Shown piece after piece: positions 17,312 to 47,661 of a stretch of DNA of 53,611 bases. The notes beneath the pieces are model-generated. The model saw only the letters and a program-made list of their open reading frames with translations, was not told the origin of the DNA and did no database searches. Source of the DNA: a virus (taxonomy: Duplodnaviria; Caudoviricetes); IMG/VR virus record IMGVR_UViG_3300021964_000093, positions 1 to 53,611 of that record. One strand, given 5' to 3'. The position numbers and the translations under genes were made by a program. The first letter of the stretch is position 1. Every line of letters starts with the position of its first letter.

Positions 17312-17967
17312 TAAGATACTCCTCTATTATTAATTGGGTTATAGTCTACATCACAGTTTGCAGCTAAAGTTCTTCTCATACCTTCTCCATTGAATGGATA
17401 TACACAATGCCTCATATCATATGGAAAGATATAAAAGTCTCTTTCTTTTATTTCTGGTTGATAATCTATATGTGCAAACTGACCAGATGCTGAACCTAAT
17501 ATTTGTAATCGTCCGTTTTGAGGTTGGTGTGGAGATGAATATTCTACACCATAAGACTCTGGTAATTTTAAAATCATCACTGAAGATAAACCTGTAAATA
17601 AGGTTCCTTGATGAACGTGCACTGGATTATATTCGTGCGCAAACATTTGATTTACCCATACAGAATTCATATGTAATCTATAATCTTTTATTTTATTCCA
17701 ATTTAAATAATGATGAAATTTTTGATTAAACCATTGTAGTACGTTTTGTGGTAATAAATTATGAGTATGCATTTTAGATTGGTCTTGACCATCATAAAAT
17801 AAGCTATGTTCTTTTTCTATTTTACCAACCAATTGTTTATTTGCAGGTCTTAGTTCTGGATATTTTGTTTCATAGATATGATTGATGATATTATAAACAT
17901 CTAATGGTACTTGATATTTTAATACCGATTGACCTAAAAATATAAAACTAAAATCTGATGTGTCCAT
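17311..17967 (-). CDS. 2OG-Fe(II) oxygenase (HxH type)
   Basis: WVNQM...YNPVHVH...IFPYDMRHCVYPF...RRTLAAN. Confidence 0.85.
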   Translation of the reverse strand: MDTSDFSFIFLGQSVLKYQVPLDVYNIINHIYETKYPELRPANKQLVGKIEKEHSLFYDGQDQSKMHTHNLLPQNVLQWFNQKFHHYLNWNKIKDYRLHMNSVWVNQMFAHEYNPVHVHQGTLFTGLSSVMILKLPESYGVEYSSPHQPQNGRLQILGSASGQFAHIDYQPEIKERDFYIFPYDMRHCVYPFNGEGMRRTLAANCDVDYNPINNRGVS

Positions 17968-18745
17968 ATTTTTGACGTATTCTTTCTGGAATTCTATCCA
18001 AATATTTATTAGGTTCTTTTCTAACTGTAGTTCTTATCGTATGCATATTCTTTCCCACCACTTTATCGTCATAACCTATACCATTAACATTAATTTGTTT
18101 CAAGTTTTGAAACTGGTGTTTAAAGGGTTTTATTCCTAAAAATGAATATAGATTATTAAATACTTGTTCTGGGTTTGCTACCATATCATCATATTTTATA
18201 AAGTGACACATATCAGGATAATTATAAGCATTCTTTATTGCTTCTAAATCTTTTGCAACTGCACCATCTTTATTCATAATCATTCCAAGTTTTTCATCAT
18301 CGGTATTTAAATTAAATCTATTTGGAAATGCATCAGGGTTTTCAGTATACCATTTCATATAAGAGGCTAGTACATCCATTAAATCTCTAACAATAACTAT
18401 ACATTTAAATGGTCTTTTATAATGCTTTTGCATTAGCATTAAATTACCAGGTGTCATCACAGGTCCACGATCAATGATATATTGTTGTGGCCAGTCTTTA
18501 TAATAATTGTCATAAACTGAATCTAAAACATTATCGAGTGAATCGTGGTCTTGATAATTTAAAAAGACATCAGTTTGCTTTAGAAGAAATAAATCTTTCA
18601 TTATTTCTAATGTTATTGAATTAGGTGTACAAACTATCTCTGGATTTTGATTGATGATTGATGCAAATAAAGTATTACCAGATCTAGGAAGTGCAACTAA
18701 AAAGAATAACTGTTTATTCTGTTTTAGGCTTTGCTCCAAGTCCAT
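17948..18745 (-). CDS. sulfotransferase family protein
   Basis: 5'-PSB loop LPRSGNTL, 3'-PB VRDLMDVLAS, IKYDDMV...LYSFLG. Confidence 0.85.
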   Translation of the reverse strand: MDLEQSLKQNKQLFFLVALPRSGNTLFASIINQNPEIVCTPNSITLEIMKDLFLLKQTDVFLNYQDHDSLDNVLDSVYDNYYKDWPQQYIIDRGPVMTPGNLMLMQKHYKRPFKCIVIVRDLMDVLASYMKWYTENPDAFPNRFNLNTDDEKLGMIMNKDGAVAKDLEAIKNAYNYPDMCHFIKYDDMVANPEQVFNNLYSFLGIKPFKHQFQNLKQINVNGIGYDDKVVGKNMHTIRTTVRKEPNKYLDRIPERIRQKYGHIRF

Positions 18746-44633: not shown

Positions 44634-45596
44634 TTAATTTACAGATTGTTCATATTTTTTTCTTGCCAAAATTTTAGCCTCTCTTGACATGAATTTATTT
44701 TTCATGCCTTTTATTCTTTCAGCAAGATTTGTTGGATTGTAAATTGTAAGACCTGTTGAGTTAGTTCTTATCAATTCTGCCTCATCAATCTTGATACCAA
44801 GTGCGTCAGCTAATTCAACTGCCTCACTCATGTATCTGTATGCTTTCAATCCAATCTTTAACTCATCACATTGTTTAGTGATACTATCAATCCACTTTTG
44901 GTGTGTTGATACTAATTGAGATTTAGCAACTCGCCATTGTTCTAATTGCTCATACTCATCTTTAGTACATGCGATAGTTCTTGAACGACAGTAAGAAGTT
45001 CCTATTACATCTAATAAAAAATTATCATTAAATGCTTTGGTCATTCCTGTATTGTTTTCAGAATGATAACTTGATGAAAACCCAAGTGCTTTATTATTTG
45101 CGTCCACATGTTTAGTTTTAAATGGATTATCTTGCTTATCATTTTGTTGAGCAAGAATATCTGGGTTTAACCCTTTTTCTTTTAACTCATCTCTATAATA
45201 AGCATAAGCAAATTGTTGTCCCTCATCACTTGAGTATTCACTACCTGTAAGATTACCAAACAAACCAAAATCAAAATGAGATTTTGTTTCTGTTTCTTTA
45301 TTGTCCTCATCAACATTTTCTGTGTGAGCAAAATAAAAACATTTATCTTTGGCAACAACATCACATGGACTTCCATATTTAGATTTAAAGTGTCTTAAAA
45401 CTTTAACATCTTCTGGTGGATAAGACCTTTCAACAATCTGTGTTGCAAGTTCAAATGCTGATTTATATTCTGTATCAACATTCTCTCTTGCTACGAGATA
45501 TGCCTCTTTCTCTTGTGTCATTTCTTCTTCAAACACATTTTTTATTTTACCAAACAACTTATTTCGTAGTTCAGTATTTAATCGTATTCTTGACAT
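44634..45596 (-). CDS. hypothetical early protein
   Basis: 320-aa ORF with AACAGAAAGGA leader. Confidence 0.7.
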   Translation of the reverse strand: MSRIRLNTELRNKLFGKIKNVFEEEMTQEKEAYLVARENVDTEYKSAFELATQIVERSYPPEDVKVLRHFKSKYGSPCDVVAKDKCFYFAHTENVDEDNKETETKSHFDFGLFGNLTGSEYSSDEGQQFAYAYYRDELKEKGLNPDILAQQNDKQDNPFKTKHVDANNKALGFSSSYHSENNTGMTKAFNDNFLLDVIGTSYCRSRTIACTKDEYEQLEQWRVAKSQLVSTHQKWIDSITKQCDELKIGLKAYRYMSEAVELADALGIKIDEAELIRTNSTGLTIYNPTNLAERIKGMKNKFMSREAKILARKKYEQSVN

Positions 45597-45641
45597 AATG
45601 TCCTTTCTGTTAATTGTTAATAATTTTTTTTATAAACTATC

Positions 45642-45669
45642 TTGACATTCCTGTCAATAGGATTATATA
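45642..45669. promoter_or_regulatory. back-to-back -35 boxes (divergent promoter)
   Basis: TTGACA-TTCC-TGTCAA at the strand switch; TATATA 16 nt downstream on +. Confidence 0.6.
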
Positions 45670-45674
45670 GGATT

Positions 45675-46010
45675 TATCTATCTTGCTTGATTATCAAATC
45701 GAAAGATATTGACTGTAGAGTGGTAGATATATTAGTAACGGATAGCGGTGAGTTTAAACACTATACCAGAAGAGAAGGCCCGGAGCTCTATATGTCATGC
45801 AATTACAGGCCTCATGACCTCTTCCGGCGCACGTTACTGATAGTAATTTGTTGGTCTATTGTTAGATGCAAATTTTTAAAAGCGCTAGCATGGCAATGGA
45901 CCTACTAATTATTATGACTAAGTACACTCTTATACTCGCTCCACTGGAGGTGTTTTCTAAGAGAACATTCTTAGGCCAGGGTCCGGAGACTGCAGCTCTC
46001 CCGGATCCTG
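45675..46010 (+). ncRNA. candidate structured non-coding RNA
   Basis: At least six complementary segments, several needing G-U pairs on the + strand; promoter immediately upstream; no credible ORF. Confidence 0.55.
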
Positions 46011-46130
46011 AGCAAATGAAAATAAAATAAAAGCTTCAAGCAGCAAGCTTCAAGCATCAAGCTGCGGCGTCGTTGCACATGTACATGAAAAATTTCATAT
46101 GCATAATGCAGCTAACAGAAAGGAATAATT

Positions 46131-46274
46131 ATGAGTAAAGTGTCACCAATGAGCGAAGAGTTTCATGACTGGCTGGACAGCTGCCCTGTGCAATGGTTCA
46201 GGGGAGAAGTGAGCAAGGACCACGTTGTATATTATTTTGAAACGCCGGACGAAAATGAAGATGATGAGAATTAA
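46131..46274 (+). CDS. small acidic protein (47 aa, not in ORF track)
   Basis: MSKVSPMSEEFHDWLDSCPVQWFRGEVSKDHVVYYFETPDENEDDEN*; AACAGAAAGGA leader. Confidence 0.7.
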   Translation: MSKVSPMSEEFHDWLDSCPVQWFRGEVSKDHVVYYFETPDENEDDEN

Positions 46275-46461
46275 ACACAACGATCTAACACATTATTTTT
46301 TACGTGATCATGACCAGCTGCCGGATGCCTATCTCCGGAGCTGTAAGAAATTTTTTAAAGAACTGAGCATCAAGCAACAAGCCTCAAGCAACAAGCGTCA
46401 AGCGGTCACATTACACAAGCCCGGTTTACGTGTTAAAAATAGATTTAACAGAAAGGTATAA
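46261..46461 (+). CDS. hypothetical protein overlapping heptamer array
   Basis: MMRIKHNDLTHYFLR...; C-terminal part is translated repeat. Confidence 0.4.
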   Translation: MMRIKHNDLTHYFLRDHDQLPDAYLRSCKKFFKELSIKQQASSNKRQAVTLHKPGLRVKNRFNRKV

Positions 46462-46462
46462 T

Positions 46463-47065
46463 ATGAATACAAAAGAAGCTCTAAAAATTGTGGGCGGCCT
46501 GAGCAAGCCGTCTAAGATGCCAGGCTGGGCCTATGGTACACCAGCCGCAGAATGTAAGACTGGAACAAAGTTAAGAGACATAAAGGGCAGCACCTGCCAT
46601 AAGTGTTATGCAATGAAGGGTTGCTATGTCTTTCCGGTTGTTCAGGCAGCTCAATACAGACGTTTAGATAGTATCCAGGACCCGCGTTGGGTTGACGCCA
46701 TGGCCATGTTGATTAATTCTAAAAAATCAAAATGGTTCAGGTGGCATGACTCAGGCGACGTGCAGGACGAAGCTCACTTGTATAAAATTTTTGAAGTATG
46801 CGAGTTGACGCCAGAGACTAAGCACTGGTTACCAACTAGAGAAGCCTGGACCAGGAAGCACTTAAAGCACAAGCCAAAAAATTTGGTATTACGATTTTCT
46901 ATGCCAATGGTTGACCAACCTGCCTCAGGCAGCTGGGACAATACATCAACAGTCGTGAGCGGTGAAGGGAGAACATGCCCGGCCCCTGATCAAAACAACG
47001 AATGCAAAGACTGCAGAGCATGCTGGGACCATTCTGTTAAAAATGTAGCCTACGGTAAACACTAA
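46463..47065 (+). CDS. GP88-like Cys-rich protein (radical-SAM-related)
   Basis: C...CxxCYA, FRWHDSGD, WLPTRE, CPA...CxxCRACW; start MNTKE after AACAGAAAGG. Confidence 0.7.
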   Translation: MNTKEALKIVGGLSKPSKMPGWAYGTPAAECKTGTKLRDIKGSTCHKCYAMKGCYVFPVVQAAQYRRLDSIQDPRWVDAMAMLINSKKSKWFRWHDSGDVQDEAHLYKIFEVCELTPETKHWLPTREAWTRKHLKHKPKNLVLRFSMPMVDQPASGSWDNTSTVVSGEGRTCPAPDQNNECKDCRACWDHSVKNVAYGKH

Positions 47066-47292
47066 ACCGTGGGCCACGTTTTCCGACATCCAAATTATTA
47101 TAAACAACTAAAGGAGAAGTATGAACAAGAAGCAGCAAGCAACAAGCATGGAAACGACGATCCGGATCTTACACGAAGAGTGGGCCCTGAACCAGGGACT
47201 AAGATCCAAGCGTCAAGCTCCAAGCATCAAGCGTCAAGCAGCAAGCGTGGACGCAGAAATTTATAACGATTCAGATTACAGAGCGACAAGCA

Positions 47293-47661
47293 TCAAGCGT
47301 CAAGCACTGACAAAAATTCCAAGCAACTAGACCAACCCTGTTTCCGGGGGTCAAGCTTCAAGCCACAAGCTACAAGCTCCCGGATATCTTTTCCTTCATA
47401 AAGTTTTGGAAGCATGAGGCAGGCATCAAGAACTAAGATAAAAGTATTGAGTGGATGCTTCACGTGAAAGGCTATTTGGTGTGGAGAGAAGGTGACCTTG
47501 TTTGTTTTTGTAACTTTCAGCTCTATAGTGAAAAAGTGCCTATTATTATTATAGACCAATAGATCAGGAGTGCCGGGAACGCTAAGATTCTCCAGTCGAA
47601 TAAGCGAAAATTCTTTAAAATGTTTTTTAACTTGTGCATAAAATTTGGTTTCAGGTTTCAC
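47293..47661 (-). CDS. PD-(D/E)XK nuclease, Holliday junction resolvase/VRR-NUC-like
   Basis: E..F, RLEN, GTPDL, IELK, SPHQIAFH; GTG start. Confidence 0.75.
   Translation of the reverse strand: MKPETKFYAQVKKHFKEFSLIRLENLSVPGTPDLLVYNNNRHFFTIELKVTKTNKVTFSPHQIAFHVKHPLNTFILVLDACLMLPKLYEGKDIRELVACGLKLDPRKQGWSSCLEFLSVLDA

Follow-up and report, generated by a model that had tools for sequence, protein, structure and literature searches.

A structured RNA locus beside the terminase genes

The DNA analysed here (the window) is one complete virus record of the IMG/VR database, IMGVR_UViG_3300021964_000093, with a length of 53,611 bases and an estimated completeness of 86%. Because its large terminase is 81.3% identical to the counterpart in Pelagibacter phage HTVC027P, and a 320-amino-acid (320-aa) protein encoded on the − strand is 71.7% identical to HTVC027P gp35, we assign the source to the HTVC027P-type pelagiphages, the group that infects SAR11 bacteria. 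The locus of interest is a gene-free spacer of 534 nucleotides (nt), placed between the large and the small terminase genes and bounded by the 320-aa gene on the − strand and by + strand genes on the other side. This spacer encodes, on the + strand, a conserved, non-coding, modular structured RNA that contains a genuine pseudoknot and is tied to one promoter in one abundant phage lineage (Table 1). The original prediction had described a structured non-coding + strand RNA of about 330 nt following a TTGACA promoter. Covariation, an excess of G–U pairs and the lack of a conserved frame bear this out, except that the RNA is a chain of separately exchangeable modules and not a single unit.

Table 1. 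Features of the RNA locus and of its surroundings (positions in the window unless a related locus is named).
Feature	Position	Strand	Remarks
320-aa gene	44634–45596	−	constant divergent neighbour of the RNA locus
Putative leftward promoter of the 320-aa gene	−35 TTGACA 45657–45652, 17-nt spacer, −10 TATAAA 45634–45629	−	read from sequence
Rightward sigma-70-like promoter	−35 TTGACA 45642–47, 16-nt spacer, −10 TATATA 45664–69	+	read from sequence
5′ AU-rich hairpin, UAUCUU-GC-UUGAUU / AAUCGA-AAGAUA	45679–45708	+	pairing seen in the sequence
Module B, three-way junction RNA	45730–45842	+	covariation, covariance model
P1	45730–40/45832–42	+	module B helix
P1b	45746–47/45828–29	+	module B helix of 2 base pairs (bp)
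P2	45748–50/45759–61	+	module B hairpin
P3	45766–74/45819–27	+	conserved A–C at 45768/45825
P4	AGGCC 45776–80 / GGCCU 45808–12	+	module B helix, first helix of the pseudoknot
Pseudoknot helix	GUCAUG 45794–99 / CAUGAC 45813–18	+	crosses P4
8-mer GGAGCUCU, core GAGCUC	45782–45789	+	long first pseudoknot loop; candidate symmetric kissing/dimer-linkage site
Scaffold hairpin H2 (module C)	45841–59 with 45895–914	+	exchangeable tip 45860–45894
Module D core, ~62 nt	45915–45976	+	almost invariant; occupies the Flavobacterium-1 slot of relatives
Terminal GC-rich hairpin	45977–46010	+	7-nt loop CUGCAGC 45990–96, holding the palindrome CUGCAG
A-rich tail, then CAAGCNN heptads (46030–46062)	46011–46062	+	closes the array; repeat scan
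Promoter-like site	46080–46107	+	ahead of the open reading frame at 46131; promoter scan
47-aa open reading frame	starts 46131	+	downstream of the RNA array
Small gene beginning MRI..	46225–46461		window counterpart of a conserved small gene of relatives
GP88-family gene	46430–47065	+	downstream of the spacer; Pfam/PHROGs annotation
Flavobacterium-1 RNA in relatives	L163 (HTVC027P) 2502–2622; L278 652–771; L279 925–1045		always downstream of B

The minimum free energy (MFE) of the + strand is −97.9 kcal/mol (z = −3.10), a value reached by 1 of 100 shuffles; that of the − strand is −88.1 kcal/mol (z = −2.16), reached by 2 of 100. The MFE fold of positions 45676–46030 gives P1, P3, P4, the hairpin at 45841–45914 and the terminal hairpin, and all of the pairings listed at the outset are present in the sequence. 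Since folding energy alone is merely suggestive, we gathered homologues. Iterated nhmmer searches returned 63 distinct copies of module B, 61 of which are full length and were aligned with the window. In these 62 sequences the core helices (P1, P1b, P2 and P3) are paired in 96.7% of cells, compared with 23.5–51.6% when the 3′ partners are slid; 11 of the 21 pairs have changed on both sides, and none of 500 shuffles reached the covariation score. For the full window-type structure, followed in the window's subtype of B together with its sister subtype (32 sequences, 31 of them distinct), the corresponding values are 89.0% and 31.0–46.4%, and in both comparisons the structures were written from the window sequence, a bias that favours them over the slid controls.

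In the same 32 copies all five pairs of P4 have changed on both sides, and the helix that crosses P4 is 98.4% paired, with two-sided changes at five of its six pairs. At least ten different complementary pairs of pseudoknot strands are seen among B copies. Module B contains an H-type pseudoknot in which both helices covary; the pseudoknot geometry proposed originally, and indeed every named helix of module B, is backed by compensatory changes among homologues. The single mismatch that had been noted in P3 turns out to be a conserved A–C mismatch, its A nearly invariant and its C invariant. The inside of P3 is variable, and nearly all subtypes share one topology, in which the 5′ strand of P4 is followed by a palindrome or hairpin, the 5′ strand of the pseudoknot helix, a linker, the 3′ strand of P4 and the 3′ strand of the pseudoknot helix. 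The junction itself is conserved (CGGUG..UAAACACUAUACC and CGGCGCAC) and would be the likely recognition surface. A covariance model built from the 62-sequence alignment (R1) finds a single copy in the window, at 45728–45842 (79.4 bits, E = 2.4e-15).

Cells with G–U or U–G outnumber those with A–C or C–A by 32 to 3 in the window-type alignment and by 29 to 1 in the larger alignment, which places the RNA on the + strand, as the G–U pairs of the window had suggested. Among 56 distinct copies, even the best of the frames on the two strands stays open through module B in only 6, and the lengths of the copies are spread over all residues modulo 3. Neither of two open reading frames (ORFs), one of 88 aa (45642–45908) and one of 54 aa (45866–46030), has a match in Pfam or PHROGs; the former, which the original prediction had named as the test case for coding, carries no coding signature.

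Upstream of B, module A (45677–45729), which includes the 5′ hairpin, has no sequence homologue by nhmmer in the related loci. Relatives carry AU-rich hairpins at this 5′ position, with a weak folding signal (mean z = −1.2 over 95 distinct sequences, 20% of them below −2). Downstream of B, 136 distinct contexts were compared, and 71 of them contain the base of scaffold hairpin H2, with pairing at 12 or more of its 14 base positions. It shows a compensatory change, GGUC/GACC alternating with GGAC/GUCC, and keeps U–U mismatches at two positions (in 66 and 56 of the 71). Its tip accommodates inserts of roughly 20–140 nt among relatives, and the tip sequence of the window recurs in the hairpin preceding B in L083, L085 and L116. 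The tips of relatives (L012, L085, L091, L100, L104 and others) often contain GGUAAA, possibly a loop of the GNRA type that makes tertiary contacts as such loops do in large folded RNAs.

The core of module D has only two variable sites among 26 distinct versions (42 distinct contexts). The candidate CTAAGA/TCTTAG hairpin within this nearly invariant module (45957–74) competes with a longer-range fold. In the terminal hairpin, the stem variants seen among the 26 versions are compensatory (GGGUCC/GGAUCC, GGGCCC/GGGUCC, GGACCC/GGGUCC and GGAUCC/GGAUCC). Module D is rare, with three other IMG/VR contigs and 58 metagenome stretches; a 16-mer scan of IMG/VR for D gave six stretches, namely the three known contigs and three chance matches inside coding sequence. 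In each of the 46 contigs that extend 300 nt or more upstream, D is preceded by B on the same strand. A 38-aa ORF (MTKYTLILAPLEVF...), which starts at a conserved ATG (45914) within 45914–46030 on the + strand, spans module D.

Relatives carry a further module, X (~55 nt, upstream of B), that is absent from the window (GUUAGUCCCUUGCUGA..GAGAGGGRCUGAUGCC; for example L083 2660–2716, L085 2875–2931 and L091 2907–2963). Its stems covary (CCC/GGG with GCC/GGC; ACU/AGU with AUC/GAU). No Rfam model matches X in nine loci at E up to 1, and of the 58 metagenome contigs with D, 40 also contain X.

Promoters, module order and distribution

Transcription from the rightward promoter would start at about 45676. 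The promoter segment 45597–45676 is 80–99% identical in many relatives, and sequence conservation with relatives ends at 45676. A consensus scan did not list this promoter because its −10 hexamer ends in A. Upstream of the 320-aa gene, 100 of 169 distinct regions contain the pattern TTGACN-N15-18-TAnnn(T/A), among them relatives whose 320-aa homologue is only ~30% identical. The leftward TTGACA/TATAAA site probably works as a promoter as well. The two −35 hexamers form an inverted repeat, TTGACA-N4-TGTCAA, and TTGAC..GTCAA occurs in 107 of the 169 upstream regions. Of the early divergent promoter that had been proposed, the divergence stands, and its early timing receives indirect support from the early-to-middle genes downstream of the locus in HTVC027P: gp33 and gp34, directly downstream on the same strand, belong to a cluster expressed 6–9 h after infection (PMC12753301). 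The text of this transcriptome paper mentions no RNA polymerase of the phage's own and does not use the words ‘intergenic’ or ‘non-coding’ (PMC12753301).

At the other end of the array, the GC-rich terminal hairpin leads into an A-rich tail and not into a U-tract. The CAAGCNN heptads that follow recur on the + strand at 46366–46403, 47126–47148, 47201–47246, 47287–47306 and 47352–47378, so that, with those closing the array, 20 of the 23 matches lie in the + strand of the 46.0–47.4 kb gene block, where 2.2 are expected by chance. The heptads are intergenic and often end at or just ahead of a −35-like TTGACA or TTGCAC, and HTVC027P and the relatives show the same arrangement. Possible roles are those of activator sites, of UP-like elements or of signals at the RNA level (e.g. 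for Rho loading).

Part of the stretch is contained in 14 DNA runs and 6 RNA runs. Contigs from the RNA libraries of four studies cover B, C and D, with possible DNA carry-over that makes them weak as support for expression.

We collected IMG/VR relatives of the 320-aa protein (509 confirmed of 512 candidate stretches) and of the GP88 protein (175 of 179), and fetched the best 80 loci of each for comparison. Apart from the window, 95 distinct regions have the two genes as divergent neighbours, separated by spacers of 404–1808 nt. As judged by BLAST and nhmmer, the spacer of the window is a mosaic: B, C, D and 46011–46130 find their matches in different sets of loci, almost always along the entire segment, and the 17 related regions that we read consist of the same building blocks in varying combinations. 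Model R1 gave 67 matches in 65 of 82 sources, all on the strand opposite the 320-aa gene. A pattern scan of IMG/VR located B in at least 120 stretches; in 113 new loci B is divergent from the 320-aa gene in all 101 testable copies, at 101–947 nt from the gene start, and the 13 copies without the gene in view all have at most 622 nt of upstream sequence. Of 100 regions examined, 64 contain at least one module and 36 none. The order is X, then B, then D or the Flavobacterium-1 RNA (RF02976) in all 32 regions with two or more modules, and CAAGC heptads usually follow the array. Even phages that share more than 90% identity in the neighbouring protein differ in their module sets, a turnover that fits the expectation for an accessory locus.

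B is also present, unannotated, in the gp34–gp35 spacer of the cultured phage HTVC027P (MN698241, positions 17,671–18,218). This copy belongs to a diverged subtype, and a DNA search of GenBank phages with 45600–46130 found nothing. In 185,579 species genomes the same pattern scan found B only on three short contigs of 2.4–6.6 kb, binned with a Porticoccaceae metagenome-assembled genome (L277), a Flavobacterium single-cell genome (L278) and a Nitrosopumilus metagenome-assembled genome (L279); these are likely to be mis-binned or co-amplified phage DNA and not cellular copies.

The divergent neighbour was considered as a candidate partner of the RNA, but sequence and fold searches gave nothing usable. 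The 320-aa protein has no match in Pfam or PHROGs, and a profile search against PDB sequences returned none. Its AlphaFold model (predicted local distance difference test, pLDDT, 80; predicted template modelling score, pTM, 0.73) has no PDB fold match at E ≤ 0.001; among viral models it matches, at this threshold, only two uncharacterised proteins of uncultured viruses, with a weak match to a ‘nucleotide modification associated’ protein at E = 0.039.

Relation to known RNAs and exchange of palindromes

The original statement that the RNA fits no known class agrees with the covariance models of Rfam 15, which have no match in the whole window at gathering thresholds. At E up to 10, the region 45550–46150 gives five weak matches, the best with 26 bits against a gathering threshold of 50, and none lies inside B. 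By these searches the RNA looks like a new family. A literature search found nothing on structured RNAs of pelagiphages and no description of B, D or X, although the supplements of one catalogue (PMC10690425) may list a piece. This catalogue of 8,495 unnamed candidate structured RNAs was drawn, like the RNA described here, from IMG/VR intergenic regions on the basis of covariation, with sizes of 29–151 nt (Fremin et al., 2023; PMC10690425). Pelagibacter does not occur in its main text (PMC10690425). One of its numbered DNAVirus entries could well be B or a part of it.

A known motif does occur in the arrays of relatives. The slot after B that D occupies in the window is filled there, in the same array and on the same strand, by the Flavobacterium-1 RNA, which scores 80.6–97.8 bits in L084, L086, L090 and L104 and 90.2–114.4 bits in HTVC027P, L278 and L279 (threshold 58.9). 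Like the window array, it closes with a GC-rich hairpin, after which come the same A-rich tail and CAAGC repeats. The window has no RF02976 match even at E up to 10; D replaces the motif in its slot without any detectable sequence in common, B and X have folds of their own, and the window array is, as judged by sequence, a variant that lacks the Flavobacterium-1 module. The motif appears to belong to pelagiphages. Indeed, a 6.5-kb scaffold of a Flavobacterium single-cell genome carries both RF02976 and B, and the name of the motif may derive from a pelagiphage scaffold filed under such a genome. A literature search on ‘Flavobacterium-1’ returned nothing related to the motif.

The first pseudoknot loop of B, 13 nt long in the window, holds the self-complementary 8-mer of Table 1. 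An 8-nt self-complementary stretch (G–U allowed) occupies the same position in 31 of the 32 aligned copies, its variants including, besides that of the window, AGGUACCU, GGAUAUCU, GGUUAACU, GGGUACCC, GGGAUCCC and GGAGCUCC. Among 130 distinct full-length B copies (the window and the related loci fetched), a perfect palindrome of 6 nt or longer is present there in 88. The central tetramer of these 88 is GAUC in 27, GUAC in 22, AUAU in 20, AGCU in 7 and UUAA in 4, with a few rarer ones, and the palindromic cores differ between otherwise similar copies. The self-duplex energy predicted by nearest-neighbour parameters is −11.5 kcal/mol for the 8-mer of the window and ranges from −6.6 to −15.0 kcal/mol for the B 8-mers. 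Co-folding of two B copies yielded only a trivial domain-swapped duplex. Another self-complementary 8-mer, the AU-only UUUUAAAA, lies in the apical loop of the 45841–45914 hairpin (45874–45881, + strand); its predicted duplex energy is −1.8 kcal/mol, and it is unchanged in the relatives that share this tip.

Neighbouring nucleotides in a palindrome are unable to pair with each other in the same chain, so their concerted exchange points to a contact between chains. In the argument of Kretsch et al. such covariation must mean cross-chain pairing, and in the L9.3 loop of OLE and the L21a loop of GOLLD, where GGCC switches to GAUC or AGCU, cross-chain kissing loops are seen in structures from cryo-electron microscopy (bioRxiv 10.1101/2024.12.08.627333). 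The B loop, with its internal palindrome replaced by other palindromes among homologues, carries the same covariation signature of symmetric (homotypic) kissing loops as OLE and GOLLD. The tip of the 3′ hairpin of the Flavobacterium-1 RNA switches palindromes as well (CCUGAUCAGG, UGGCCA, CGUGCACG and CGUCGACG, with cores GAUC, GGCC, UGCA and UCGA). It varies independently of the B palindrome in the same genome, which excludes pairing between the two modules and leaves two separate homotypic sites per RNA. A literature search found no kissing-loop signature described for the Flavobacterium-1 family.

GOLLD and ROOL are phage-borne, and they, like OLE and like the RNA described here, have elaborate covarying structures for which no function is established (bioRxiv 10.1101/2024.12.08.627333). 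OLE, GOLLD and ROOL measure 500–800 nt or more, and the GOLLD/ROOL class is characterised by lengths above ~500 nt and a frequent position beside tRNA genes, whereas the present RNA has ~340 nt, matches none of the models and comes from a window that contains no tRNA gene at all. In addition, its modules are freely exchanged among close relatives, and its assembly is putative.

Loop–loop pairing between copies of one RNA is also known from the dimerisation initiation site of human immunodeficiency virus 1 (HIV-1), a 6-nt palindrome that differs between subtypes, and from the packaging RNA of phage phi29, which is phage-encoded and made from an early promoter. Neither has a sequence or fold relationship with the window RNA or an Rfam match in it, and many relatives lack B altogether, which would not be expected of an essential packaging RNA. 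Type III antitoxin RNAs of the ToxI kind consist of tandem direct repeats of a short pseudoknotted unit beside an endoribonuclease gene; such repeats were not found either: B is single-copy in the window, and in 45500–47500 only the CAAGCNN heptads repeat, outside the modules.

A proposed self-associating accessory RNA and its alternatives

On balance, we lean towards a host-transcribed accessory phage RNA, probably early, that acts in trans and associates with itself. A discrete transcript with its two ends, the formation of dimers, the action in trans and the existence of a partner are the parts of this reading that we infer. Host RNA polymerase would probably start at the TTGACA/TATATA promoter and produce a non-coding RNA that ends near 46020–46060. 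This RNA would be a string of independently folding, exchangeable modules, namely a protective 5′ hairpin, B, the scaffold hairpin with its swappable tip, and D with the terminal hairpin. The long arm of B would end in the H-type pseudoknot, and the 8-nt element, extruded from the pseudoknot loop, would pair with the same element on a second RNA to give a symmetric dimer, with the CUGCAG loop of the terminal hairpin as a possible second contact. As a trans-acting accessory RNA, probably expressed early, the product might then bind or sequester some partner.

Several observations weigh against such an RNA. In 33 of the 130 distinct B copies an ordinary hairpin (at least 4 bp) stands in place of the palindrome and in 9 there is neither, so dimerisation through B would not be universal. 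In 17% of trials, shuffled segments of 13–14 nt still held a palindrome of 6 nt or more; a palindrome has a symmetric composition to begin with, which makes this control weak, and the repeated swap of one palindrome for another seems to us the stronger argument. The CUGCAG loop is invariant among D versions and gives no covariation signal for its palindrome. A scan around the array found no U-tract terminator on the + strand, the contigs assembled from RNA libraries also span the promoter and the coding flanks and come without strand or end information, and fold searches with the linked 320-aa protein gave no informative match that would have identified a partner of the RNA. Finally, in L197, L011 and L018/L019 the P1 helix of B ends ~10–15 nt before the ribosome-binding site and ATG of the next gene, with neither CAAGC repeats nor a promoter in between, which makes B part of a messenger RNA leader in these loci; in L011 and L018/L019 the gene in question is the conserved small gene beginning MRI...

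Because a few B copies abut a ribosome-binding site in this way, a cis-acting 5′ leader is the main rival explanation. B would then sense a ligand or a protein, in the manner of a riboswitch or a translational operator, and control the early-to-middle genes downstream on the same transcript. The aptamer-like make-up of B, with its invariant junction, variable periphery and pseudoknot, would suit this role. Moreover, in HTVC027P and several relatives an upstream ACUGAUC can pair with the 5′ strand of P1 (GAUCAGU), and this pairing would lengthen the preceding hairpin into an alternative fold. However, it is the upstream promoter and the 320-aa gene that are constant, while the downstream gene varies by phage. 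The window, HTVC027P and most related regions have CAAGC repeats between the array and the next gene, and a further promoter-like site lies past these repeats in the regions read. No known riboswitch model of Rfam matches, and a leader would explain neither the switching of palindromes nor the fixed order of several modules. We regard a cis-acting leader as unlikely.

Other readings are less likely. The modules could be self-cleaving or processing ribozymes, or RNase cassettes, that cut the primary transcript at conserved ACUGAU boundaries, and indeed their boundaries are sharp and conserved, nearly all matches are full length, ACUGAU recurs at the 3′ ends of X and B, and the size, pseudoknot and invariant junction nucleotides resemble those of small ribozymes. 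This is made improbable by the lack of any hammerhead, twister, pistol, hatchet or hepatitis delta virus-type match (E up to 10 in 45550–46150, E up to 1 in nine related loci). By inspection, a hammerhead reading of ACUGAUG/ACUGAUA fails on the core, with no GAAA after the would-be stem II. A small protein, encoded by the 88-aa, the 54-aa or the 38-aa ORF, is quite improbable in view of the frames and database searches described above, and module D is likewise unlikely to be coding. Its core is highly conserved, and in all four homologues first compared its frame is open and ATG 45914 is kept; yet this ATG lacks the purine-rich ribosome-binding site of the real genes here, a variant with a 1-nt deletion shifts the frame through the terminal hairpin and still keeps the pairing, and the two variable sites in ~62 nt, next to a freely varying hairpin, are unlike synonymous drift. 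The sequence beyond ~46020 differs between contigs, so the end of the 38-aa ORF is not conserved, and the 88-aa ORF begins within the −35 hexamer. Very improbable, finally, is an element acting as DNA, such as a replication origin, a packaging site or an operator array with palindromes as protein-binding sites. Its placement between the terminase genes would fit, as would the inverted repeats and the 6–8-bp palindromes coinciding with type II restriction-site sequences. On the other hand, the helices keep G–U pairs, which would be A–C on the other strand, the covariation of the pseudoknot would be meaningless in duplex DNA, and the palindrome changes between close relatives where a protein site would be conserved.

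A bolder extension of the self-associating RNA is drawn by analogy, and we consider it rather unlikely. Each RNA may present two or three self-complementary loops (the pseudoknot loop of B, the hairpin tip of D or Flavobacterium-1, and perhaps UUUUAAAA), and pelagiphage transcripts would then be multivalent, self-assembling RNAs that link into RNA-only rings, chains or cages in infected SAR11 cells.

SAR11 are the most abundant bacteria of the surface ocean, and HTVC027P-type pelagiphages infect them. A cultured pair of HTVC027P and its host carries B, and an infection time course by RNA sequencing has already been published for it, so that transcript mapping, dimer assays and structure work are immediately possible. 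If our reading is true, the locus would add new RNA folds (B and D and, in relatives, X) to the few structured phage RNAs known, the orphan Flavobacterium-1 motif would gain its true home, and the signature of RNA–RNA quaternary contacts would extend to a small, modular RNA. Were the multivalent version also true, the pelagiphages would possess a modular and smaller equivalent of the nanocages of GOLLD and ROOL, which might trap some component of the host as the phage takes over the cell.

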